Shown: piece after piece, positions 2,659-46,469 of the stretch
Numbering within the stretch: the stretch's first letter is position 1
How the letters are laid out: the number at the start of each line of letters is the position of its first letter
Assembly (NCBI GenBank): GCA_035281425.1
Contig: DATEDX010000084.1
Location: 1-59,143 of the forward strand
Length of the DNA stretch: 59,143 nucleotides
Origin: Acidimicrobiia bacterium
GTDB taxonomy: Bacteria > Actinomycetota > Acidimicrobiia > Spongiisociales > ZC4RG35
Reading direction: 5' to 3'
Program-made: the position numbers and the translations under genes
The notes under the pieces: generated by a model
What the model saw: the letters and a program-made list of their open reading frames with translations, nothing else
Databases searched by the model: none
Told to the model about the DNA's origin: nothing

Positions 2659-3480
2659 ATGAACGACACCCACGTCGAAGAACCCAGTAACGAAGCGCTA
2701 CGGGCAATCACCCGGCGCTCGGCCCTGCGGCTGTTAGGAGGAGCAGGTCTGGCGGTGGTGGCTGCCTGCGCCACCGATCTCACCTCGACCTCGGCCACCA
2801 CCGGCACCACCGCCGCCTTCGAGACGCCCACTACTGGGACGGGTTCGGTCACCACCGCCTCCGCAGTCACCAATCCCACCTTCGGCGGTGCCGGCAGCTG
2901 CGTTTTGGTACCCGAGGAGACGGAAGGTCCCTACCCCCTCGACCTCTCGGGCTCCGAAGAGTTCTTCCGCAGTGACATCACCGAAGGGAAAGAAGGAATA
3001 CCGCTGACCATGAACCTGGTGCTGGTGGACGTGAACAACGGATGTAATCCGGTCTCGGGGGCGCGGGTTGACGTGTGGCACTGTGACGCGGCCGGGGTCT
3101 ACTCGGGCTACAGCCAGCCGGGCGCCGACACCACCGGCGAGACCTTCTGCCGGGGGATACAACTCACCGATGCCAACGGCCAGGTGACCTTCCAGACCAT
3201 CTACCCGGGTTGGTATCAGGGTCGTGTCACCCACATCCACTTTCAGGTGTTCCTGGAGTCGGGCTTGGCCGCCACCTCCCAGATCGCCTTCCCCGAAGAC
3301 ATCACCAGGACGGTCTACGAGGTGGAGCCGTACGCGGCCAAGGGTCAGAATGCCTCGGTGGCGAGCAACGCGGCCGACGGCATCTTCGCCGATGGCACCC
3401 AGTACCAGCTCGCCACCATCACCGGCGGAGTCGACACCCGCCTGGTGGGCAGCCTCCTCGTGGGAATCGCCAGCAGCTGA
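2659..3480 (+). CDS. Tat-signal lipoprotein, intradiol ring-cleavage dioxygenase-like protein
   Basis: Twin-arginine signal TRRSALRLLGGAGLAVVAAC. Motifs TEGPYP, VDVWHCDAAGVYSGY, YPGWYQGRVTHIHFQV are typical of the protocatechuate/catechol intradiol dioxygenase fold. Confidence 0.75.
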   Translation: MNDTHVEEPSNEALRAITRRSALRLLGGAGLAVVAACATDLTSTSATTGTTAAFETPTTGTGSVTTASAVTNPTFGGAGSCVLVPEETEGPYPLDLSGSEEFFRSDITEGKEGIPLTMNLVLVDVNNGCNPVSGARVDVWHCDAAGVYSGYSQPGADTTGETFCRGIQLTDANGQVTFQTIYPGWYQGRVTHIHFQVFLESGLAATSQIAFPEDITRTVYEVEPYAAKGQNASVASNAADGIFADGTQYQLATITGGVDTRLVGSLLVGIASS

Positions 3481-3507: not shown

Positions 3508-3556
3508 TTTTGGCGAGTAAAGCCGACGCGATAGCGTCGCCTCTACGCGCCAAAAA
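3508..3556. repeat. REP-like palindromic element, degenerate copy (loop GATA)
   Basis: TTTTGGCGAGTAAAGCCGACGC-GATA-GCGTCGCCTCTACGCGCCAAAA; 3 mismatches in the stem. Lies 28 nt after the dioxygenase stop. Confidence 0.8.
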
Positions 3557-4042: not shown

Positions 4043-4495
4043 TCAAGGTGGGGGGAGAGTGGTGGTCGTCAACGCATTACCGATGCATCCTTCCATCCCG
4101 CCTCGGAATTCCCAGAGCCGCATGCCGATGTCCGGCCAGCGGCGCAGCACCAAACCACCATCCATGACAAACCCAGGAAAGCGCCAGCGGACGCACATAT
4201 GGGTCAACTCTCCGGAGCTGTTATGAGGGAAGACCTCCACTACGGGTGCACCGTAACGGCGGTGATACGACAGGATCAGCTCGGCGACTGCTTGCAGTGC
4301 GTCAGGCTCACCAGCAACCCCATGAGTGAGAAGGCGCGCATGGTCCAATTCCCCCTCCAAAACGAGGGCAATCCAAAAACGGGTGAGTGATTCAGCTTCG
4401 CCGATCGTCTGCATCTCGGCCGTCACTTCGGCGGGTTCGGCTTCCGTACAAGCCGCAAGGACAACGACTGCCAGCAGCAACGTGACGGACTTCAT
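4043..4495 (-). CDS. hypothetical lipoprotein (paralog of 6157..6615)
   Basis: Lipobox LLAVVVLAAC. About 40% identity by eye to the 6157..6615 product, including RFP..VM.G.LV.R.WP..G.R..EF.GGMEGC. No family recognised. Confidence 0.6.
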   Translation of the reverse strand: MKSVTLLLAVVVLAACTEAEPAEVTAEMQTIGEAESLTRFWIALVLEGELDHARLLTHGVAGEPDALQAVAELILSYHRRYGAPVVEVFPHNSSGELTHMCVRWRFPGFVMDGGLVLRRWPDIGMRLWEFRGGMEGCIGNALTTTTLPPP

Positions 4496-4573
4496 TCGAG
4501 CATGAACCTACCCTCTGGAGAGACCGCCTTCGGGAAGGAACTCCGGGGCGACGAGGAGCGTCAAACTAGACGC

Positions 4574-6079
4574 ATGACCAAGCGCCTCCTGGTCCTCGCC
4601 TTATTTGCTTCGGTTCTGGTCGTTGCCCCTACCCAGCAGGCCCTCGCCTGTTCTTGCCGGCCCCTCGACCTCGCCACGGAGGTCCCCGAATATGACGCCG
4701 CCTTCGTCGGAACCCTGGTCGAACGCCCCAACATGTCCCTCCTGGGCGACGCGCCCTACCACTTCGAGGTCGAACAATGGGTCAAGGGTGACCTGGGTCC
4801 CGAATTGGACGTCCTGGCCCCCAGCCAAGGTGCGGCGTGCGGCTTCGAGGCTCCCCTCGGGGAACGAGTCGGGGTGCTGGTGCAGGTGGAGAACGGGATC
4901 GCCCGCGGCAACCTTTGCACCATGGCCAACCCTGACCTGCTCCTCGTTTGGGACCGGGCCCTAGCCGTTGAAAGTGAGGGGCCGCCGGTCTTTCTCGTCG
5001 CCGGTTCGGAGGGGCTTGCCCGGCTGGTGCTGCTGGACGAAGCGGCCCAGATCGTGGCCTTGGTAGGGGGTGAAGGAGAGAACCTCAACGGGCTGACGGT
5101 GTGTCCGGGCTCATCCCTGCTGGTGGAAATGGTCAACGACCAACTGGTGGTCCGCTCCACCGCCGATCTGCGCGAAGTGCGACGCATCGACCTCATGGGT
5201 CTTCCCTTTGAGGTCGGAGTCCCCAACATCTGGTGCCGGGACCCGGCCGCCCAACAAATCTGGTTAGGGACCGATCAATACACCGAGGAGGGCGAGATCA
5301 TCTTCCAGGTGCTGAGCGCGGACAACCTCGATCAGCCCCTGCTCGAGGGTCCTTACAGCTGGATGGAGGTAGGCCCCCATGTCGCAGTGGGAGGAGAAGG
5401 TCCCACTGCCGAGACCATCTGGCGCATCGATCTGGCCAGTGGCGAGCGCACCTTACTCCACAAGATCCCGGTCGATTCGGCAGACTCGTCGCCGTCCGGG
5501 CGAGGATTCATCAATCCCAACGGCACCCAGGTAATGGTCAGCGAGTGGCGTTACAACGACGACCGGGGTGGTCTCACCAACCTGTTCCTCTACGATCTGG
5601 AGTCGGGAGAAGTCGTGTCCCAGATCGATAGCTTCCCCACTGCCGATGGAGTGGGGTGGATCGACGAGCGGCGATTCCTTCTCTACTCCTACCCCGATAT
5701 CAACTCTGACCAGGTGGACAATGTCATCATCGATGTTGTCACCTCCGAGGTAACCGTCCTCGACGAGTTCGCCGGATGGCGTAACCACATCCTCGGCGAG
5801 CAGATGGTGGGAGCCATGGAGGCGAGGCTGCGGGCGGTCCCTCTCGCCGGCGGACAGCCGATCGAGTTACGCCTCCTTCCATCCGAATATCACTACCTGG
5901 CGGCGATCCTCGACCCAGAGGCTCAACTCGCCGCCCCCACCACTACTTCCGGTCCCATCACGACGTCAAGCCCGACGACTTCGACTGCCGTCCCTAGGAC
6001 CAGCGAGGGGCCGGGGTCGTGGCCTCTCCTCCTGGCTGCGATGGGGGTGGTGGGTTTGATCGTGATCGCCCGCCGTTGA
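4574..6079 (+). CDS. secreted, C-terminally anchored protein: N-terminal TIMP/NTR-like Cys-x-Cys domain + beta-propeller-like region + TSP-rich linker + TM
   Basis: Track ORF 4502..6079. ATG at 4574 gives the signal peptide MTKRLLVLALFASVLVVAPTQQALA followed by CSCRP. The middle resembles TolB/WD40-like repeats. C-terminus TTTSGPITTSSPTTSTAVPRTSEGPGSWPLLLAAMGVVGLIVIARR. Confidence 0.7.
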   Translation: MTKRLLVLALFASVLVVAPTQQALACSCRPLDLATEVPEYDAAFVGTLVERPNMSLLGDAPYHFEVEQWVKGDLGPELDVLAPSQGAACGFEAPLGERVGVLVQVENGIARGNLCTMANPDLLLVWDRALAVESEGPPVFLVAGSEGLARLVLLDEAAQIVALVGGEGENLNGLTVCPGSSLLVEMVNDQLVVRSTADLREVRRIDLMGLPFEVGVPNIWCRDPAAQQIWLGTDQYTEEGEIIFQVLSADNLDQPLLEGPYSWMEVGPHVAVGGEGPTAETIWRIDLASGERTLLHKIPVDSADSSPSGRGFINPNGTQVMVSEWRYNDDRGGLTNLFLYDLESGEVVSQIDSFPTADGVGWIDERRFLLYSYPDINSDQVDNVIIDVVTSEVTVLDEFAGWRNHILGEQMVGAMEARLRAVPLAGGQPIELRLLPSEYHYLAAILDPEAQLAAPTTTSGPITTSSPTTSTAVPRTSEGPGSWPLLLAAMGVVGLIVIARR

Positions 6080-6120
6080 TCCCGGCCTCTCCCCCGTCCC
6101 GCCTCTCCCCCTCCTCAGGG

Positions 6121-6169
6121 TTTTTGGCGCGTAGAAGCGACGCTATCGCGTCGCTTCTACGCGCCAAAA
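6121..6169. repeat. REP-like palindromic element (22-bp perfect stem, loop TATC)
   Basis: TTTTGGCGCGTAGAAGCGACGC-TATC-GCGTCGCTTCTACGCGCCAAAA. Lies between convergent genes. Overlaps the last 3 codons and TAG stop of 6157..6615. Confidence 0.9.
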
Positions 6170-6615
6170 GGGGGAGCATTGCAGCCTTCCATCCCGCCAT
6201 GGAACTCCGACACTCTTAGCCCCTGTCCGGGCCATTGGCGCGAAACGAGCGCCCCGTTCATCACCAACTCCGGGAATCGAAACACCGCACACACAAATAC
6301 GAGTCCGTCTTCGGTGGTGCTGTGGTGAAAGACGAGAACCGTGGGTAGACCATGCCGGTGGTTTCGAAGGAAGAGGGTCTCGGCCAGCCCATCCAACGCT
6401 TCCTGCTCTCCATTTTGGCCGCGGGTAAGTTGACGGGCACCTCCAAAGTCGCCGGTCAAGGCCCGGTGGATCCAATCCTTGGTTAAGACGACTGCTTCGA
6501 CTGCGAACTCCCTCCGAAGCGGTGCCGGATCCTCCGGTCTGGCCGCCAACCTGTCCCCAGGTGGGACGCACGATGACAAAGTTGCGACAGTTACAAGGGC
6601 CACGAGCCGTTTCAT
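6157..6615 (-). CDS. hypothetical lipoprotein (paralog of 4043..4495)
   Basis: Lipobox VATLSSC. Shares the GGMEGC C-terminal motif with 4043..4495. The last residues FGA and the stop are encoded by the REP element. Confidence 0.6.
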   Translation of the reverse strand: MKRLVALVTVATLSSCVPPGDRLAARPEDPAPLRREFAVEAVVLTKDWIHRALTGDFGGARQLTRGQNGEQEALDGLAETLFLRNHRHGLPTVLVFHHSTTEDGLVFVCAVFRFPELVMNGALVSRQWPGQGLRVSEFHGGMEGCNAPPFGA

Positions 6616-6652: not shown

Positions 6653-6701
6653 TTTTTGGCGCGTAGGGGCGACGCGATAGCGTCGCCCCTACGCGCCAAA
6701 A
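6653..6701. repeat. REP-like palindromic element (22-bp perfect stem, loop GATA)
   Basis: TTTTGGCGCGTAGGGGCGACGC-GATA-GCGTCGCCCCTACGCGCCAAAA. Preceded by CCCTCCTCAGGG, as is the 6121 copy. Lies between divergent gene starts. Confidence 0.9.
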
Positions 6702-7869: not shown

Positions 7870-7918
7870 TTTTTGGCGCGCCGCGATCGGGCTATAGCCC
7901 GATAGCGGCGCGCCAAAA
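7870..7918. repeat. REP-like palindromic element, inner-stem class CGATCGGGCTA
   Basis: TTTTGGCGCGCCGCGATCGGGCTA|TAGCCCGATAGCGGCGCGCCAAAA (1 mismatch). Lies between convergent stops 7855 and 7936. Confidence 0.9.
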
Positions 7919-7935: not shown

Positions 7936-10900
7936 TCAGCTGCAGCCGAGGCTGTTCCCGCAGTTGAGGCACTTGTAGCAAGCGCCGTTGCGGATGGTGA
8001 TGTGCCCACAGATGTCGCAGATCGGTGCGTCCCCCATCATCTCGCTCAAGGCCGACTGCATGGCCGCGGTGCCGGCGTCTTTCGCTCCTACCGCGGCGGC
8101 GATTTTGGCAGCCTTCCCCGGGCGGGTGACGAGCTGGGCTCCCGGGGTCGGCTGCGCGATCGGAGCTCCCGGCGAGCCTTCCAAGAACTTCACCGCGCTG
8201 GCCACCGCGGTGACGTCCCGCTCGGCCACCGCATCGGTGAGGTCAAGCTGCACCCCCGCCTCCACCGCTAGGCCGGAAGCCGGCTCGGGCAGTTCACCTT
8301 CTCGCACCGGAGGAACCTGGGCGAGGTCGTCTCGACGGAGATACTCCACCGCCAGCGCCCGAAAGACGTAGTCGACGATGGAATTGGCCATCTTGATATT
8401 GGGGTGGCCCTCGACCATGCCCCGGGGTTCGAAGGTCTGGAAGGTGAAGGTATCGACGAACTCCTCGAGCGGCACTCCGAACTGAAGTCCCTTGGAGACG
8501 GCGATGGCGAAGCAGGAGAGGATGCCGCGCAATGTGGCGCCTTCCTTGGCAAGGTCGATGAACAGCTCACCGAGGGTGCCATCTTCGTATTCGCCGGTGC
8601 GGAGATAGACCTTGTGGCCTCCGATCTTGGCTTCCTGGGTGTATCCACCCCGTCGGGCCGGAAGCAGGAAACGTGGCGGATGCATTCCCCGGGCGTAGGC
8701 CTGGGTGGGCGAGAGCCCGGCCGGGATCTTCCCCCACAGGATTTGCTTGTCGATCTCATGCGCCTTGGTGACCTCCTCTGGCTCTTCTTCCGATTGAGCG
8801 TCGTCGGAGGAAGCGGAGAGGGGCTGGCTGGCCTTGGACCCGTCTCGGTAAAGAGCCATGCACTTCACGCCCAGCTCGTAAGAGAGCATGTAGCTCTCCT
8901 CGATGTCTTCCACCGTGGCCTCGTTGGGCATGTTGATGGTCTTGGAGGCGGCCCCAGAGAGGAAAGGCTGGGTGGCAGCCAGCATCTTGATGTGGCCGGT
9001 GTGGTGGATCAAGCGCTGCCCTCTGCGTCCATTGCGGTTGGCCGTGTCGAACACCGCCAGGTGCTCCTCGCGGAGGTGAGGGGCTCCTTCGATGGTCTGC
9101 TCGCCGCACACCCATTCGGTGGCTTCTCGGATCTGGGCCCCCGAATAGCCCAACGCCCGCAGCAGATCGAAGTCGAAGGTGGCGTACTCCTCAGGAGCGA
9201 AGCCCAAGCGCTGCAACGTCGCCTCGCCGAGGACAAAGGGGTTGAAGGCGTGCTTCAACTCGAAGACCGCCGGGAGGGTGGCTTCGATCTTGGCCAGGTC
9301 GTCGTCGTTGAGACCCTTGTCCCGCAACGTCTCCGGGTTGATGTGCGGTGCCCCTTGCAGGGAACTGGTTCCGACGATGTAGCGGACGATTTCTTGGATT
9401 TGGACCTCGTCGTAGCCGAGGTTGCGCAGGGCCGGCGCCACCGACTGGTTGACGATCTTGAAGTAGCCGCCTCCGGCCAGCTTCTTGAACTTCACCAGAG
9501 CAAAGTCGGGCTCAACCCCGGTGGTGTCACAGTCCATCTGCAGCCCGATGGTGTTGTGAGAGACAAACCCGTTGGCGACATAAGTCACGTTGTCGGGAAC
9601 CGACAGATCGTATGTCAATTGCTCTTCACCCAGCTCTACCGAGTTGACCTGGTCGTAAAAGAACCCCAGAAGGTGAGCGAGGCGAGGATCTCCGGTGCGC
9701 TCCAAAAGCTCCTCGGCAGAACGCCGAGAAACGAGTCCGATGCGGCTCATGCTCAAAAGCATGGTTCTACGAAGGCCATCGTTCAGTGGATGGAGTTCGT
9801 CGATCAGACTCCGGGGGACGGGCACATAGTCCCGACGCGCGGCCTGCTGGGTCTGATGCCGGACGATGCCCGCTTGCTTGCGCCCCGAGATGAACCCGAT
9901 TTCTGCAGCCCAACGACGGTGATATGAGGCGTTAACCGGCCGCAGAGTTACCGAGGTCGATTGTCCCCATCCAGTGGTGTCGAACTTCCTTGCCATCGGA
10001 TACCCGATGGCAAGAAGCAGCGATTGGACGTCAGCGGCGAATTCGAGGGATGTTGTTGTCCAGCTGGGATAACCGTGGGAGTGGGCATACCCATCCGCCT
10101 CGAAGAGTCCTTTGATGAACGCCGTATAGGTGCGGCGGTCATTCGTGGCGAGAATGGCCTCGGGAACGTGGGGGTGCCAGCCCTTGCCAACGTGTCCTTC
10201 GGAGGGTGCCTTTTTGCTGAATCCACAGGCCTCCCACCAGACAGCCAATGGCACCGAGTTAAACGCCACCTCTTCGTAACCCTGCCGTGGCGCAACCTTG
10301 GCTTCGAGGTTGAACAAGTCCTTGCCAAGAAGCGAAAGCCTCTCAACGACATCGAAGTCACCAGCAGTGACCGTGAGCCGAATTCCTTTGGCGTGTAGCG
10401 ATCCGTCTCCCATGAAGTAGCCGACGAACTCGGCCAACTCAGGGGTTATCCCGCCGGGCACCTTGGTCGTGAAGTCCGCCGTCCAGTGGGCATCGCCCAA
10501 CGGCGGCAAGAGAACCGGTTGGGGCTCCCCTATCAGCTGGTCAAGCTGAAGAGGGACCAGATCTCCCTCCTCCACTTCGGCGAAACGCTTCCAGGTCCAG
10601 CTTCCGTCGGGCTGCACCACCTTGACTCGGTGAGTGGCGGTGCCCTGGAGCCGGTAGCCGCGACCGGTGTCCACTGTCACCACCGGTTCTACTCCATTGA
10701 CGTAGAAGTGGGTGGCGGTTCGAGGTCCTTCGTCAGTTCCCACTGCCAACTTGAGATCCTGCCACTGCCCCCCGTGCGGATCGCCCAACGTGGCTAGGCG
10801 CACCAACCCTCGCTCGGTGGGTACCAGTGTTCCGCCGATTAGGCATCCAGTAGGAGCAATGACGCTCACCTGGGCGTTGCGGTAGCCGTGGCGCTCGCCC

Positions 10901-13900
10901 ATGTCGAGGGCGAGATCCCAAGACTGGCGAGCGGCGGTGAGGAGGTTGGACGGGGTCAGACTGCCGTTGATGCCCACGACATAGTGCGACAGGCCTTCGT
11001 ACTCGCTTTGCTCGGCGTCGTAAGCGGCCCGGCGATGATTGCGGATCACCCGCAGCATCGACTCCCGGTTCTCGGCAAAACGGGGGAAGGGCCCCACTGC
11101 CGCAGCCAACTCGGCCGAGGTGGCGTAGGCGTATCCGGTCAGGATGGCGGTGATCGCTCCGGCCACGGCCCGGCCGTCGCCGGAGTCGTAGGGCAACCCC
11201 ATCCGCATCAACAGGGTGCCGAGGTTGGCGTAGCCCAGCCCGAGAGTCCGGTAGTCGTAGGAACCCTGGGCGATCTCCTTGGAGGGGAAGTGGGCCATTG
11301 TCACTGAGACCTCTAAGACGATGGTCCACAACCTGATGGCATGCTCGTAAGCCTCGACGTCGAAACTGTTAGTGGCGTCGTCGAAGAACTTGATCAGGTT
11401 GATCGACGCCAGGTTGCACGCGGTGTCATCAAGAAAAACGTACTCGCTACAAGGGTTAGTCGCCCTGATCTTTCCCCCGGCCGGAGAGGTGTGCCACTCG
11501 TTGATGATGGTGTCGAACTGCACCCCCGGGTCGGCGCAGGCCCAGGCGGCTTCAGCCACTCGTCGCCACAGGTCACGGGCCTTGACCGTCCTTCGCACTT
11601 TGCCGGTCGTTCGATCGGTGAGCTGCCAGTCGTCGTCGTTGCGAACCGCTTCGATGAACTCATTGGGAACCCGCACCGAGTTGTTGGAGTTCTGCCCTGA
11701 GACCGTGGCGTAGGCCTCGCCGTTGAAGTCGGCGGGGTACCCGCCGTATTGGATCAGGGTCCGCGCCTTCTCCTCTTCGTGCTTCTTCCAGTCGATGAAC
11801 TCTTCGATGTCGGGATGGTCGAGATCGAGGATCACCATCTTGGCCGCGCGCCGAGTTGTTCCGCCGCTTTTTATTGCCCCTGCGGCCCGGTCTCCGATCT
11901 TCAGGAAGCTCATTACTCCCGAAGACTTCCCCCCGCCGGAGAGCCTCTCATTCTCGGAGCGAATCGAGCTGAAATTGCTGCCGGTGTTGTGGATGGCGAC
12001 CAGTCCGTATCGTCCGGCTAGGTAATTCGAATGATTTGCCACCGTGAGGTCGTAAAAGTCCGGATTCGTGGTGCAGGTTGTCACCGAACTGACGAAAGCG
12101 ACCGAACCGGCGACTCTTGAGACGGTGGAAGCGAGCTCGTCTTGCCGATCTATTACCGCTACCGCCCTCTGGAGCTTGCGCGGATTAACCAGGCCTTCGT
12201 AGTGGAGCCGACCGAGGTGGAAGCTGTCCTTACCGAGTCGGACCCGCAGCCAATCGGCTGGTGGGCGCTTCCCGAAAAGGTTTTGAGCCAAGTCGCGACT
12301 GAGAGGCATGCAGAATGCCCGCTCGCCGGCTCGACCAGCGACGTGCTCAAGCAGGCGTTGGCGACGATGCGGATGGCTCATAAGCGAAGCGAGGGCGTCT
12401 CGCTTCGGAAGGGGCGCCGACTTGCGCAAGATGGTGACAACCCATCCGTTGCCGGAGCGGGTGAGTCCCCCGCCCATGCCGTGGAACGAAACCAAGACCG
12501 CCAGGTCTTCGGCTAGGGACCGAGAGGCGGTGAAGACTGAAGCCCTGCCGCTGGCAACCGTGCCATCCGAATCCATCAAGCCAGCGAGGAAAGCCAGCGT
12601 TAACCGCGGACCACCAGTCCAGAGGAAACCAGGAAGGCGCTGGTTATCTTTAGGCCCAGGTTCGAATAGGGAACTGATAAAGCCGGTGACTCGGCGGCCC
12701 GTATAGGTCAACATTTGGCCGGCCTGATCAGTGTCGATCGGCTGCATCGAGGACGTCTCGCCAAAGTTTCGACGTATTGTCTCTTGAACTCGGCGCAGAT
12801 TGTCCTCCGTCTCGTCAAAGAAGCGGACCCGTGGCCGCCGATATTCATAGGTACGGCCATACTTGTTGGTGGTCCGGGAGGATTGGATTCCGAGACTTCC
12901 GTCGCCGACGAAGTAGCCCACCAACCATGCCAGATCCTCGTCCAGGACAACGGACTGCTTCTCTACGTGGCGGAAGTAAGACGTCTCATAGTCGACAACG
13001 ATCGGTTCCTGGCCGATTGCCTCCACAGCCGACTCGTTTGGACCAAGCACGGCATCTCCACGTCGGAGCTGATCGGCCCGTCGCTCAACCACGTTCTCCC
13101 CATCCCACACCAGGAAGGGATGCCATTCGGAAACAATCGCCTCTGCGCCGGTGTCGAAGCGGACAGTCAGCTTGTCGTCTTCGGCGACGTCGTATGCCCA
13201 CACAAGCTCGACTTTGTCCAGGTTGTACTTACCGGTCTTCTCGTCAATTGAGAGAGTGAAGACGTCCTCGTCGCCTATGTCGATATAACGACCCTTGCCA
13301 TCGAACTCTTGAATAGGACGGCCCTGACGAGCGTAACGCTGAAAGAGATCACGTATGGGAATGAAGCCCTCGCCCTTCACGTAGACACGCGAGTCCCCCG
13401 ACGTGCAACCGCTCCCCATCTTGAAGAGGCGGGCCTCTCGTACCCACAGGTCCATGATCCCGCCAGGGTTGACCAGATCATCCTTAACACTGTTTATGAA
13501 ACAGGCATGAGGGGCAGGATGGGAGTAGGCGTCGGGGGATTCCGTCATCTCTCCGCTCTGGGGGTCGACAAACCAGAAGCCCTGGGGCGTACCGGTGATG
13601 TCATAGGCATGGGCGAGGCCGGTGTTGAACCATTGCGGGGAGTTGGGAGAGGCGATCTGGTTGGCGAGCATGTACTTGAGCTCGTCTTCGAAGGCCTGAG
13701 CGTCGGCTGGGGTGGCGAAGTAGCCGTGATTCTCGCCCCACCAGCGCCAGGTGCCGGCTAGGCGATCGAAGACCTGACGAGAAGAAATCTCCCCACCCAA
13801 GACCGGCTCACCATCCTCATCGAGGACGGGATTTCCCTCGTCGTCGACCTGAGGAACGCCCGCCTTGCGGAAGTACTTGGAGACAATGATGTCGGTGGCG

Positions 13901-14061
13901 ACCTGGGACCAGGAGGCGGGAACCTCAGCGTCCTTCACCTCGAAGACCACCGATCCGTCAGGGTTGGTGATACGAGAGTCGCGTTTTGCCCACTCGATCG
14001 ACGAATAGGGATCGCGTCCTTCCTCGGTGAAGCGCCGGGGAATGCGTAGACCTTCAGTCAT
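7936..14061 (-). CDS. nrdJ: vitamin B12-dependent (class II) ribonucleotide reductase, precursor containing two inteins
   Basis: 2041-aa ORF. Extein motifs: RIPRRFT...PYSSIEW, KMGSG|TGSNFSSIR, ATNPCSEYVFLDDTACNLAS, VIAPTG|TIGLQMDCDTTGVEPDFALVKFKKL. C-terminal Zn ribbon CDICGH...CYKCLNCGNSLGC. SD GGAGGGAGAGGAGAGG before ATG 14061. Confidence 0.95.
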   Translation of the reverse strand: MTEGLRIPRRFTEEGRDPYSSIEWAKRDSRITNPDGSVVFEVKDAEVPASWSQVATDIIVSKYFRKAGVPQVDDEGNPVLDEDGEPVLGGEISSRQVFDRLAGTWRWWGENHGYFATPADAQAFEDELKYMLANQIASPNSPQWFNTGLAHAYDITGTPQGFWFVDPQSGEMTESPDAYSHPAPHACFINSVKDDLVNPGGIMDLWVREARLFKMGSGCTSGDSRVYVKGEGFIPIRDLFQRYARQGRPIQEFDGKGRYIDIGDEDVFTLSIDEKTGKYNLDKVELVWAYDVAEDDKLTVRFDTGAEAIVSEWHPFLVWDGENVVERRADQLRRGDAVLGPNESAVEAIGQEPIVVDYETSYFRHVEKQSVVLDEDLAWLVGYFVGDGSLGIQSSRTTNKYGRTYEYRRPRVRFFDETEDNLRRVQETIRRNFGETSSMQPIDTDQAGQMLTYTGRRVTGFISSLFEPGPKDNQRLPGFLWTGGPRLTLAFLAGLMDSDGTVASGRASVFTASRSLAEDLAVLVSFHGMGGGLTRSGNGWVVTILRKSAPLPKRDALASLMSHPHRRQRLLEHVAGRAGERAFCMPLSRDLAQNLFGKRPPADWLRVRLGKDSFHLGRLHYEGLVNPRKLQRAVAVIDRQDELASTVSRVAGSVAFVSSVTTCTTNPDFYDLTVANHSNYLAGRYGLVAIHNTGSNFSSIRSENERLSGGGKSSGVMSFLKIGDRAAGAIKSGGTTRRAAKMVILDLDHPDIEEFIDWKKHEEEKARTLIQYGGYPADFNGEAYATVSGQNSNNSVRVPNEFIEAVRNDDDWQLTDRTTGKVRRTVKARDLWRRVAEAAWACADPGVQFDTIINEWHTSPAGGKIRATNPCSEYVFLDDTACNLASINLIKFFDDATNSFDVEAYEHAIRLWTIVLEVSVTMAHFPSKEIAQGSYDYRTLGLGYANLGTLLMRMGLPYDSGDGRAVAGAITAILTGYAYATSAELAAAVGPFPRFAENRESMLRVIRNHRRAAYDAEQSEYEGLSHYVVGINGSLTPSNLLTAARQSWDLALDMGERHGYRNAQVSVIAPTGCLIGGTLVPTERGLVRLATLGDPHGGQWQDLKLAVGTDEGPRTATHFYVNGVEPVVTVDTGRGYRLQGTATHRVKVVQPDGSWTWKRFAEVEEGDLVPLQLDQLIGEPQPVLLPPLGDAHWTADFTTKVPGGITPELAEFVGYFMGDGSLHAKGIRLTVTAGDFDVVERLSLLGKDLFNLEAKVAPRQGYEEVAFNSVPLAVWWEACGFSKKAPSEGHVGKGWHPHVPEAILATNDRRTYTAFIKGLFEADGYAHSHGYPSWTTTSLEFAADVQSLLLAIGYPMARKFDTTGWGQSTSVTLRPVNASYHRRWAAEIGFISGRKQAGIVRHQTQQAARRDYVPVPRSLIDELHPLNDGLRRTMLLSMSRIGLVSRRSAEELLERTGDPRLAHLLGFFYDQVNSVELGEEQLTYDLSVPDNVTYVANGFVSHNTIGLQMDCDTTGVEPDFALVKFKKLAGGGYFKIVNQSVAPALRNLGYDEVQIQEIVRYIVGTSSLQGAPHINPETLRDKGLNDDDLAKIEATLPAVFELKHAFNPFVLGEATLQRLGFAPEEYATFDFDLLRALGYSGAQIREATEWVCGEQTIEGAPHLREEHLAVFDTANRNGRRGQRLIHHTGHIKMLAATQPFLSGAASKTINMPNEATVEDIEESYMLSYELGVKCMALYRDGSKASQPLSASSDDAQSEEEPEEVTKAHEIDKQILWGKIPAGLSPTQAYARGMHPPRFLLPARRGGYTQEAKIGGHKVYLRTGEYEDGTLGELFIDLAKEGATLRGILSCFAIAVSKGLQFGVPLEEFVDTFTFQTFEPRGMVEGHPNIKMANSIVDYVFRALAVEYLRRDDLAQVPPVREGELPEPASGLAVEAGVQLDLTDAVAERDVTAVASAVKFLEGSPGAPIAQPTPGAQLVTRPGKAAKIAAAVGAKDAGTAAMQSALSEMMGDAPICDICGHITIRNGACYKCLNCGNSLGCS
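9553..10845 (-). mobile_element. intein 2 of NrdJ (431 aa, aa 1073-1503) with LAGLIDADG homing endonuclease
   Basis: Starts with Cys (TGC 10845-10843) after APTG; ends ..GFVSHN (AAC 9555-9553), followed by Thr. Block B TATH. LAGLIDADG motifs FVGYFMGDGSL and IKGLFEADGYA. Confidence 0.9.
11986..13407 (-). mobile_element. intein 1 of NrdJ (474 aa, aa 219-692) with LAGLIDADG homing endonuclease
   Basis: Codons checked: starts with Cys (TGC 13407-13405) after GSG; ends ..GLVAIHN (AAC 11988-11986), followed by Thr. Block B SEWH. LAGLIDADG motifs LVGYFVGDGSL and LAGLMDSDGTV. Visibly more AT-rich than the exteins. Confidence 0.9.
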
Positions 14062-15832: not shown

Positions 15833-16207
15833 ATGAACGGCAACGGATACGCCATCGCCGTCTACGCCATCTATGCCGTGGTAGCCATTGGGTTGACCAT
15901 CTGGCTGGCGAGGACACTGCACAAGAGTGGCCAGGCTTTCCTCGAAGACGTCTTTGCCGACAAGCCGGAATTGGCAGAGTCGGTGAATCGGCTGTTGGTG
16001 GTGGGCTTCTACATGCTCAACCTTGGCTACGCCTTCTACCTGCTCCGCACCCAAAGCGGATTGGACGCCTTCGCCGCCGTCCAGGTCCTGGTCAACCGCC
16101 TGGCCATCCTCCTGGTCACGCTGGCCATCATCCACTTCATCAACGTCACGGTCTTCTGGAGCATCCGTTCTCGCAGCCAGCGGCGGGCCCAAGACCTGTT
16201 GCTCTGA
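15833..16207 (+). CDS. small integral membrane protein (3-4 TM), hypothetical
   Basis: 124 aa, hydrophobic. Its TGA stop overlaps the ATG of the TetR gene (TGATG at 16205-16209). Confidence 0.6.
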   Translation: MNGNGYAIAVYAIYAVVAIGLTIWLARTLHKSGQAFLEDVFADKPELAESVNRLLVVGFYMLNLGYAFYLLRTQSGLDAFAAVQVLVNRLAILLVTLAIIHFINVTVFWSIRSRSQRRAQDLLL

Positions 16208-16803
16208 TGGTCGACCGAGAGCCCACCACCAGAGAGGTGATCATGGAGGCGGCATTGCAGACCCTTCGCCACGAGGGCTCCGCCGGGGCCAGTGCCCGAA
16301 GCATCGCCGCTCGGGGCGGGTTCAACCAGGCGCTGATCTTCTACCACTTCGGCTCGCTCGAGAAGCTGTTCATCGAGGCCGCGGACCGCGCTTCGGCCAG
16401 ACAGGTCGATCGTTATCGGGAGGCGGCCCAGGGAGTCACTACCTTGTCGGGGCTGGTGGACCTGGCCCGCCGGCTTCACCACGACGACCAAGAGTCGGGA
16501 GCGGTGACCATCGTCACTCAGCTGATGGCCTCGGCTGTGTCCCATCCCGAGTTGGGAAGAGCAGTGCTGAGTGGATTCCGACGCTGGATCGATCTGGTCG
16601 AGGAACTGGTGGAAGGCTCACTTGAGGGGAGCCCTTTGGCGGCGATGATCCCGAAGCGGCAGGCCGCCTATGCCATCGCCGCCGTCTTCCTGGGGATGGA
16701 GCTGATGACCGGTCTGGATCCAACTCAGTCCGAGGCCGAAGCGACCCTGGAAGCGATGGGTTCACTCGCTGCTGTGTTCGAGTCCTGGTTCGGCACCGCC
16801 TGA
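16207..16803 (+). CDS. TetR/AcrR family transcriptional regulator
   Basis: Internal ATG (codon 143) of track ORF 15781..16803. HTH SARSIAARGGFNQALIFYHFGSLEKL. The upstream part of the ORF overlaps the membrane gene in another frame. Confidence 0.85.
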   Translation: MVDREPTTREVIMEAALQTLRHEGSAGASARSIAARGGFNQALIFYHFGSLEKLFIEAADRASARQVDRYREAAQGVTTLSGLVDLARRLHHDDQESGAVTIVTQLMASAVSHPELGRAVLSGFRRWIDLVEELVEGSLEGSPLAAMIPKRQAAYAIAAVFLGMELMTGLDPTQSEAEATLEAMGSLAAVFESWFGTA

Positions 16804-26306: not shown

Positions 26307-26355
26307 TTTTTGGCGCGTCAAGGTGACCGCCATGGCGTCACCTTTACGCGCCAAA
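26307..26355. repeat. REP-like palindromic element, inner-stem class CAAGGTGAC
   Basis: TTTTGGCGCGTCAAGGTGACCGCC-ATGG-CGTCACCTTTACGCGCCAAAA (1 mismatch + 1 bulge). Lies between convergent stops 26287 and 26363. Confidence 0.85.
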
Positions 26356-45468: not shown

Positions 45469-45575
45469 TTTGGGGCTCCTTTTCGTTGGGCGTATCCCAT
45501 TCAACAACGAGTGGGGAGGGTTGGTTCCAACTCGGAGGCATAGATCGGGGGCAATCTGGGTACGATCGCAGCCTC

Positions 45576-46469
45576 GTGGTCAAGTTCCGCAAACCCGTGC
45601 AACGGTCAGGAGACCTCGTCGATCGCCGGGGGGCACCCGGACGGCGGGGGGGAATCGCCATCGGGGCCGGTGGTGGGGGCCTGGCCATCATCATCGCCAT
45701 CCTGTTCGCGGTGCTGGGTGGGGGTGGCGGCGGCTTGGAGGACATCATCGGTCAGCTGCAGCCTCCGCCCCAATCCGCCGAGGAGGCGCCCCTCGATCCT
45801 TCGGTCGACCCTCAGGCGGACCTGGTGGATTTCCTGTCGGTGGTGCTGGATGACAATCAAGCGATGTGGGAGGAGATCTTCATCCAGTCCGATCGGCAGT
45901 ATCGCCGGGCTCAACTGGTGCTGTTCGAGGAGGCCACCGCTTCTGGCTGCGGAGGCGCTCACGCTGGTGTGGGACCCCACTACTGCCCCCTCGACGACAC
46001 CATCTACATGGACCTGGGCTTCTTCGAGGTCCTCGCCTCCCGCTTCGGAGCCGCCGGCGACCTCGCCCCCGCCTACGTGCTTTCCCATGAGATTGCCCAC
46101 CACGTGCAGAACGTGCTCGGGGTGAGCGAACAGGTTCGTGACATGCAGCAAGCCAACCCCGCCCAGGCCAACGACCTCTCGGTGCGGCTCGAGTTGCAGG
46201 CCGACTGCTACGCGGGGGTGTGGGCCTCGACGGTGTTCGTGGGAGAGCTCCAGACCGGGGAGGATTTGGCCCTGGATCCGGGGGAGATCGCCGAGGCCCT
46301 GGAAGCAGCGGCGGCGGTAGGAGACGACCGAATCCAGGAAACCAGCCAAGGTCGCAGCGACCCCGAAACTTTCACCCATGGCACCTCCGAACAGAGGCAA
46401 CGCTGGTTCCAGACCGGCTATGAAACCGGCAACCCGGCCGCCTGCGACACCTTTTCCGGCGACGTATAA
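45576..46469 (+). CDS. neutral zinc metallopeptidase (YpfJ family)
   Basis: N-terminal SGDLVDRRG + Gly-rich [11 protein letters not shown] zinc motif. [15 protein letters not shown] 45576 chosen. Confidence 0.8.

Follow-up and report, generated by a model that had tools for sequence, protein, structure and literature searches.

Can an actinobacterial surface protein carry the N-terminal domain of an animal protease inhibitor, and would such a domain still act on proteases? This question is raised by a gene near the beginning of a 59,143-nucleotide stretch of DNA from an Acidimicrobiia bacterium (NCBI GenBank assembly GCA_035281425.1, contig DATEDX010000084.1, positions 1 to 59,143 of the forward strand), which was analyzed at its full length and is referred to as the window throughout. 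A preliminary description of the gene, made from the sequence alone, had proposed a secreted, membrane-anchored protein whose mature N-terminus resembles tissue inhibitors of metalloproteinases (TIMPs) and NTR modules. Our analysis identifies the N-terminal module as very probably a genuine, though distant, homolog of the TIMP N-domain with a TIMP-like fold, and the best description of it is a bacterial TIMP N-domain homolog within the TIMP/NTR superfamily. For the protein as a whole, we lean towards an anchored surface protein with a TIMP-homologous head that would use a TIMP-type mechanism.

Layout of the TIMP-like surface protein

The product has five parts, namely a signal peptide, a Cys-Ser-Cys module of ~100 amino acids, a TolB-like β-propeller, a Thr/Ser/Pro linker, and a C-terminal transmembrane helix followed by Arg-Arg. 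The gene and these parts are located as follows, with the basis of each assignment in brackets:

4574–6079, forward strand: complete gene of the TIMP-like/propeller surface protein, 501 codons plus stop (open reading frame and translation)
4574–4648, forward strand: Sec-type signal peptide MTKRLLVLALFASVLVVAPTQQALA, residues 1–25, ending in A-L-A (model helix 2–17; family A-x-A statistics)
4649–4957, forward strand: TIMP/NTR-like oligonucleotide/oligosaccharide-binding (OB) fold module, residues 26–128, mature residues 1–103 (model, Foldseek, hhalign, Pfam consensus match)
4979–5923, forward strand: β-propeller, probably seven-bladed, residues ~136–450 (~28 strands with a predicted local distance difference test (pLDDT) score >90; Foldseek; family profile)
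5933–6019, forward strand: Thr/Ser/Pro-rich disordered linker, residues 454–482 (sequence; pLDDT <50 at residues 457–485)
6020–6076, forward strand: C-terminal transmembrane helix and Arg-Arg tail WPLLLAAMGVVGLIVIARR, residues 483–501 (sequence; model helix 484–500)

Structural and profile similarity to the TIMP N-domain

In the AlphaFold2 model of the full-length protein (pLDDT 87.7, predicted template modelling score 0.81), for which a full-length alignment of 58 homologs (A1) served as input, residues 26 to ~128 form a compact, beta-rich N-domain. A Foldseek search with the whole model was swamped by the propeller, returning seven- to eight-bladed propellers exclusively, and was uninformative on the head; the N-domain was therefore modelled separately (AlphaFold2, pLDDT 92.9). 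Against the PDB, this model matched the N-domains of TIMP-1, TIMP-2 and TIMP-3 best, at 19–21% identity and with query TM-scores (TMq) of up to 0.72, the top match being 3ma2_C (E 1.9e-4, TMq 0.72, 21% identity). The top 22 PDB matches were all TIMP-1/2/3 N-domains or agrin NtA, a domain that its own PDB title calls related to N-TIMP-1. Below the TIMPs ranked agrin NtA, followed by the NTR modules of C345C, meteorin and PCOLCE. The predicted structure thus returned the OB fold of the TIMP N-domain that the preliminary description had anticipated.

The same relationship was recovered at the profile level. When 307 bacterial N-domains were compared in hhalign with 104 TIMP N-domains (101 database TIMP-2 sequences and three human sequences), the two profiles aligned over 102 of 105 columns with 94.9% probability, E 4.4e-8 and a score of 47.5; leaving out the three human sequences gave 94.8%. 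Reversed or column-shuffled TIMP profiles scored 8–16, which places the resemblance to TIMP-2 noted earlier beyond chance. In the alignment, C1, C3, C64 and C90 of the bacterial module stand opposite C1, C3, C72 and C101 of TIMP-2, and the F-x-V...K-G strand motif and the C-G dipeptide are aligned as well. As judged from these alignments, the signal is dominated by the cysteine framework yet extends beyond it, because a profile with all cysteines masked still recovered the same full-length register (P 0.002).

Searched against Pfam, the family consensus matched PF00965 (TIMP) alone, at 19.4 bits and E 9.5e-4 (residues 1–105 against profile positions 3–119). PF00965 was also the Pfam family with the most matching members (3 of 102 at E ≤0.01, best E 1.9e-4), and in the reciprocal direction a hidden Markov model of the TIMP N-domain detected 43 of 315 family proteins at E ≤0.01. 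Pfam NTR (PF01759) matched neither the window protein nor any of the 102 members nor the consensus. The window protein by itself gave no PF00965 match at E ≤10. With four cysteines, the module departs from the six-cysteine NTR pattern; its modelled fold is nonetheless NTR-like. By strict Pfam criteria the module is not a TIMP member, being sub-threshold and without the third disulfide and the C-terminal domain.

The predicted mature N-terminus and its cysteines

Cys-Ser-Cys, encoded at nt 4649–4657, directly follows the signal peptide. The protein contains six cysteines in all (precursor residues 26, 28, 89, 115, 177 and 221); the mature numbering of 1, 3, 64 and 90 for those of the N-domain, and the span of nt 4649–4918 previously given for this part, are both correct by sequence. 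Among the 307 family members, Ala occupies position −3 in 94% and position −1 in 93%, and a wide range of residues is found at −2 (S, Y, L, H, A, R, F, Q, E, K, W). Downstream, Cys occupies +1 in 99% and +3 in 100%, and +2 holds Ser in 89% or Thr in 11% (together 99.7%). In the window protein, Q-A-L-A precedes the cysteine. Judged from these residue frequencies, the site is a signal peptidase I A-x-A site and not a lipobox, in agreement with the cleavage directly before Cys that had been proposed. In all 307 proteins the module stands first in the mature chain, and all fusions are C-terminal to it. A few modules seem to be internal; in every case a Met and a signal peptide lie directly upstream, and their starts were therefore mis-called.

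The four cysteines are invariant in a sample of 102 proteins and invariant or nearly so in sets of 58 and 307 homologs, which upholds their asserted conservation. The sole homologs without Cys1, P0055 and P0058 of alignment A1, are also the sole ones without Cys64. In this small subclade, Cys1 is replaced by Ala and Cys64 by Val together, with Cys3 and Cys90 retained, and this joint loss fits the pairs C1–C64 and C3–C90, that is, TIMP topology. By TIMP logic, P0055 and P0058 would be non-inhibitory variants. The equivalents of the TIMP pairs C1–C70/72 and C3–C99/101 have their cysteines in register and conserved, and are predicted bonds.

The most conserved positions of the module are C1, S2, C3, K46-G47, G61, C64-G65, E67, G75 and L89-C90, and they include residues aligned with the TIMP inhibitory edge. 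In TIMPs, the α-amino group of the N-terminal residue binds the catalytic zinc (PMC9890683), and a TIMP-type mechanism therefore requires that the N-terminus be Cys1 itself. Three points had been fixed beforehand as able to refute the TIMP assignment, namely similarity, cleavage site and cysteine conservation; the analysis found TIMP similarity in profile and structure, a conserved A-x-A site directly before Cys, and conservation of all four cysteines.

Proposed mode of action and competing explanations

In the explanation that we lean towards, the protein would be exported by Sec and cut by signal peptidase I after Ala25, so that Cys26 becomes residue 1 with a free α-amino group. Oxidation would yield the disulfides C1–C64, C3–C90 and C177–C221, the first two of which would fasten the N-terminal strand to the loop at C64-Gly65. 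The TIMP-like head would then be shown above the membrane on the TolB-like propeller and a Thr/Ser/Pro stalk of ~30 residues. The Cys1-Ser2-Cys3 ridge and the C64-G65 loop would wedge into a metalloprotease cleft, with Cys1 chelating the protease zinc and the propeller offering a possible second binding surface. As the family has no linked protease gene, the role would be a broad, ecotin-like shielding of the cell envelope from metalloproteases, either exogenous or secreted by the cell itself, and not the control of a single partner enzyme; ecotin is likewise a stand-alone, broad-range inhibitor. The data establish the gene with its architecture, the fold as predicted, the homology to TIMP and the conserved N-terminal features; we infer cleavage before Cys26, disulfide formation, binding of a zinc protease and the biological role alike. 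The protein probably displays a metalloprotease-binding head at the surface, and we regard inhibition of metalloproteases by the module as an evenly balanced matter. Only tentatively do we put forward the strongest version, in which Actinobacteria own genuine TIMPs and, in the thousands of surface-tethered proteins of the family, a free Cys1 chelates the metalloprotease zinc exactly as in animals.

A number of observations weigh against a TIMP-homologous, inhibitory head. Searched by itself, the window protein had no sequence match in Pfam, NCBIfam or the PDB (phmmer), and a single-sequence search with the N-domain alone gave no match in these three databases either. The N-domain profile found no PDB sequence at E ≤10, the 19.4 bits of the consensus lie below the PF00965 gathering threshold of 23.1, and masking the cysteines cut the hhalign score from 47.5 to 23.3, so that the cysteine framework carries much of it. 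The third disulfide of the TIMP N-domain (C13–C124/126) is absent, the TIMP-2 Cys13 column standing opposite a residue other than Cys, and the C-terminal TIMP domain with its three disulfides is also absent, with the propeller, linker and transmembrane helix in its place. Several NTR-fold proteins (agrin NtA, C345C) are not inhibitors. Finally, in a neighbourhood sample of 24 propeller-form genome or metagenome loci and four short-form loci, no protease recurred near the family gene, and the paaABCDE, ABC-F ATPase, PadR and glmS neighbours are housekeeping synteny.

The alternative that survives best takes the protein to be a true TIMP/NTR homolog that is not an inhibitor. The head would bind proteins or polymers for adhesion, envelope organization or signalling, which we consider unlikely; equally unlikely in our view is the related possibility that the disulfide-tethered N-terminus is purely structural and the TolB-like propeller the main functional part. 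The NTR modules of agrin NtA, C345C, meteorin and PCOLCE are indeed among the structural matches, but TIMPs outrank every non-inhibitory NTR module in Foldseek. The missing protease linkage in the 28 loci, the location of some short forms among cell-envelope genes (glmM-glmS-acpS-alr) or after the gene of a PadR regulator, and the resemblance of the propeller to TolB, an envelope protein-interaction scaffold, would all suit a binding role. NTR modules that do not inhibit generally lie inside their proteins or at the C-terminal end, without a free Cys1 and a CxC start, whereas the bacterial module is mature N-terminal throughout, with C-S/T-C and A-x-A kept at 89–100%. This positional constraint matches TIMPs, with their zinc-binding free N-terminus (PMC9890683).

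Convergence appears improbable. The module would then be a disulfide-stapled OB-fold barrel of independent origin with an unrelated role, one option, no more probable, being metal or redox chemistry through the N-terminal Cys-x-Cys, like the periplasmic OB-fold metallochaperone CusF. OB-folds recur widely, and CusF and cold-shock domains do occur in the Foldseek list, but at ranks 28–50 and with TM-scores of ~0.44 versus ~0.7 for TIMPs. Cysteine masking halves the profile score and the Pfam TIMP match is sub-threshold, but the full-length register is kept without cysteines and the F-x-V...K-G and C-G motifs are held in common. The coupled loss of Cys1 and Cys64 also favours a structural disulfide over free metal- or redox-active thiols.

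That Cys26 is a lipoprotein acylation site, with both ends tethered and the N-terminal amine blocked, is highly improbable and was rejected on the −3/−2/−1 statistics: a Cys right after the signal peptide is a bacterial lipoprotein hallmark and both flanking genes carry real lipoboxes (LAAC, LSSC), but the site departs from the lipobox [LVI][ASTVI][GAS]-Cys, with Ala rather than Leu at −3, residues at −2 that a lipobox does not tolerate (often Y, H, R, F, E, K or W) and Q-A-L-A in the window protein, and a C-terminal transmembrane anchor is already there.

Propeller, membrane anchor and gene start

The propeller-like region, the Thr/Ser/Pro linker and the transmembrane helix with its Arg-Arg tail, as previously described, were all reproduced by the AlphaFold2 model or the sequence. 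In the full-length model, ~28 strands span residues 140–445. In the PDB, the family profile matched propellers of TolB (E 1.9e-5 to 9e-5, profile positions 272–433) and of S9 peptidases (E ~2e-5), with the match lying in the C-terminal half of the propeller; the Pfam PD40/TolB models gave no match for the window protein. On the model, the middle region is probably a seven-bladed TolB/PD40-like propeller. Its likeness to TolB/PD40 propellers is distant, and the present protein differs from TolB in having no TolB N-domain, in belonging to a monoderm actinobacterium and in its transmembrane anchor. The Cys177/Cys221 pair within the propeller is invariant among homologs. Full-length homologs of the window protein number 61, with identities of 26–56%.

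Linkers resembling the Thr/Ser/Pro stretch are also present in short family members, and the W...hydrophobic...RR ending recurs throughout the family. As modelled, the transmembrane helix anchors the protein in type I orientation, the N-terminus facing outwards. A sortase (LPXTG) anchor was rejected, as a search of the window protein for LPxT[GAS] found none; among 102 relatives, Gram_pos_anchor gave a weak match in just one.

The open reading frame at 4574–6079 is present on the forward strand, and its translation matched exactly the one quoted in the preliminary description. An alternative ATG at 4502 would add 24 residues. The start at 4574 is likely, because close homologs all start with M-x-KRLL. 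A GAGGAG lies 16 nt 5′ of it, a long spacing for a ribosome-binding site. Both starts give the same cleavage site.

Size, forms and distribution of the family

At a cutoff of E ≤0.001, the N-domain profile detected 6037 representative clusters (50% identity), of which 1026 also passed E ≤1e-10. Among the 144 best representatives, 89 are propeller fusions and 46 are short forms of 120–260 amino acids, which consist of a signal peptide, the module, a Pro/Thr-rich linker, a transmembrane helix and a basic tail; the other nine are truncated or of other form. Throughout the family, the name given by the source is 'hypothetical protein', and precomputed Pfam domains are lacking. The named sources are Acidimicrobiia, Gaiellaceae, Pseudonocardiaceae and other metagenome-assembled genomes (MAGs) of Actinomycetota; wherever an organism is named, it belongs to the Actinomycetota. 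A tblastn search with the family consensus against 72,556 plasmids gave no match, and hence no example from a cultured replicon. A viral structure library yielded no match below E 0.04 and thus no viral relatives of the family.

Comparison with known inhibitors and related modules

The animal TIMP-1 to -4 (MEROPS I35, PF00965) have the same OB/NTR fold and are the best structural match on the predicted model. The likeness includes the Cys-Ser/Thr-Cys mature N-terminus generated by signal-peptide cleavage, the cysteine register, and the K-G and C-G motifs. Unlike TIMPs, the module is bacterial (Actinomycetota), shares only ~20% identity with them, is fused to a propeller, a stalk and a transmembrane anchor, and lacks the third N-domain disulfide and the six-cysteine C-terminal domain. 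Non-inhibitory NTR modules (agrin NtA, C345C, PCOLCE, meteorin, and the netrin and sFRP C-domains; PF01759) belong to the same fold class, whereas the bacterial module is always N-terminal and has no PF01759 match.

Two bacterial systems are closest in kind. Tim of Listeria monocytogenes (LMRG_00714) is, like the present family, bacterial and membrane-tethered, with a proposed TIMP-like fold (PMC8235301). It is a lipoprotein with a lipobox whose TIMP likeness is structural only, at ~60% Phyre2 confidence; its gene adjoins that of the metzincin Mtz, by which Tim is cleaved, and Tim has been studied but not shown to be inhibitory (PMC8235301). The present family differs in its A-x-A site, its CSC N-terminus, its profile-level TIMP homology and the lack of a linked protease. 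Potempin A of Tannerella forsythia is likewise a bacterial, membrane-anchored OB-fold protein, and it inhibits metalloproteases of the matrix metalloproteinase type (PMC9890683). It is described as structurally unrelated to TIMPs, is a lipoprotein encoded next to its target peptidase, and inhibits via loops in a 'bilobal' mechanism, not via its N-terminus (PMC9890683).

How new such proteins are depends on the level considered. The Tim authors state that they came across no record of a bacterial protein with structural similarity to TIMPs (PMC8235301). TIMP-type single-domain proteins in 'various Eubacteria' are the subject of one passing sentence in PMC3516229, which cites Brew & Nagase 2010. 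Bacterial TIMP-like sequences as such, to the extent that this second-hand mention conveys, are thus not wholly new. The preliminary statement that there is no characterized bacterial TIMP holds insofar as Tim has not been studied as an inhibitor, and gives way insofar as eubacterial TIMP-like proteins have been mentioned (PMC3516229, at second hand) and Tim has been studied (PMC8235301). In the literature, where the earlier eubacterial work is represented by that citation, we found no description of a large actinobacterial family with a strict N-terminal C-S/T-C architecture, nor of its membrane anchoring and TolB-like propeller fusion; Pfam covers none of these traits. TIMPs have been said to have 'originated during eumetazoan radiation' in a 2023 phylogenomic study (PMC10755359) and have been called an ancient eukaryotic family in a 2016 study (PMC4860685); the actinobacterial family is considered in neither.

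Genomic neighbourhood

Each of the 28 loci holds one family gene, and no tandem paralogs of the module were found. A stand-alone gene without a recurrent protease speaks against a dedicated pair of protease and inhibitor, such as those of the potempins (PMC9890683) or of Listeria Mtz-Tim (PMC8235301). In one subclade, the recurring neighbours are a divergently transcribed paaABCDE operon and an ABC-F ATPase.

Two metallopeptidase-like genes were observed at a distance. In one Acidimicrobiia MAG (locus L013, 1 of the 24 propeller-form loci), a 125-amino-acid open reading frame at 15927–16304 on the reverse strand, ~8 kb from the family gene, carries the metzincin-type HExxHxxGxxH motif HEAGHSVGLRHGD and has no Pfam match. 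In the window, a 'putative neutral zinc metallopeptidase' (PF04228, HEIAHHVQ motif) is encoded at 45486–46469 on the forward strand, ~40 kb from the TIMP-like gene. It is the sole zinc peptidase found in the 59-kb window, with no sign of linkage.

Two short forms (L025, 4378–5483; L028, 4108–5477) lie on the same strand directly 3′ of a regulator of the PadR family and of one or two small open reading frames without annotation. These PadR-linked forms are from Gaiellales, the L028 protein being labelled Gaiellaceae by NCBI, and the arrangement may be an operon suggesting envelope-stress regulation. Another short form sits between glmS and acpS/alr in a glmM-glmS-acpS-alr cell-envelope context.

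In the window, the TIMP-like gene is bracketed by two paralogous lipoprotein-like genes of ~150 amino acids, at 4043–4495 and 6157–6615, both on the reverse strand. The pair, whose lipoboxes are the above-mentioned LAAC and LSSC, shares 39% identity and a common C-terminal GGMEGC motif. Neither has a Pfam match, and none of the 28 related loci contains either of them, pointing to a local duplication or insertion that is particular to the source genome. As they occur in no other locus, they were rejected as partners of the TIMP-like protein.

Other features of the window

One further feature lies just downstream of the TIMP-like gene:

6122–6169, no strand assigned: perfect 23-bp palindromic hairpin between convergent gene ends (repeat search; RNA fold)

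Folded as 6112–6178, this copy reaches −48.8 kcal/mol (z −9.0). It belongs to a 44–48-nt intergenic palindrome, TTTTGGCGCGTAG..GCGACGC-loop-GCGTCGC..CTACGCGCCAAAA, which occurs at 3510–3553, 6124–6167, 6656–6699, 7873–7916 (a variant) and 26310–26354. Rfam gave no match over the whole window, the palindrome included, and a simple terminator scan did not call the hairpin a canonical intrinsic terminator. Possible identities of the palindrome are a REP-like element and a structure that ends transcripts in both directions.

Three other genes stand out. A 2041-amino-acid class II (B12-dependent) ribonucleotide reductase at 7936–14061 on the reverse strand is interrupted by intein sequence, with two stretches each of the Pfam domains Intein_splicing and LAGLIDADG_3, the latter a homing-endonuclease domain. 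At 1045–2541 on the forward strand, a Na+/H+ exchanger (PF00999) has a zf-UBP zinc finger (PF02148, E 4e-12) at its C-terminal end, and such a fusion is unusual in bacterial transporters. At 2659–3480 on the forward strand, an intradiol-dioxygenase-like protein (Dioxygenase_C) has a twin-arginine-like N-terminus (TRRSALRLLGG) followed by a lipobox-like VAAC; going by these motifs, its product would be an exported dioxygenase-fold protein.

Implications for the family

The family retains the features of a TIMP inhibitor, namely a predicted free Cys1, Ser or Thr at position 2, and two predicted disulfides that would stiffen the inhibitory edge. Whichever role holds, it merits a Pfam/InterPro model linked to the TIMP clan. 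If the module inhibits metalloproteases, the family would form a major new class of bacterial protease inhibitors and hint at how monoderm bacteria shield their envelope, and the origin of the TIMP/NTR module would become directly testable. If Actinobacteria own genuine TIMPs, the inhibitory TIMP/NTR module would have arisen in prokaryotes or would have moved between lineages through ancient horizontal transfer, the proposed origin of TIMPs in the eumetazoan radiation (PMC10755359) would be overturned, and the propeller fusion would represent a new two-site, membrane-anchored inhibitor architecture. If the module is not inhibitory, the 'inhibitory' N-terminal architecture would predate protease inhibition or be independent of it.

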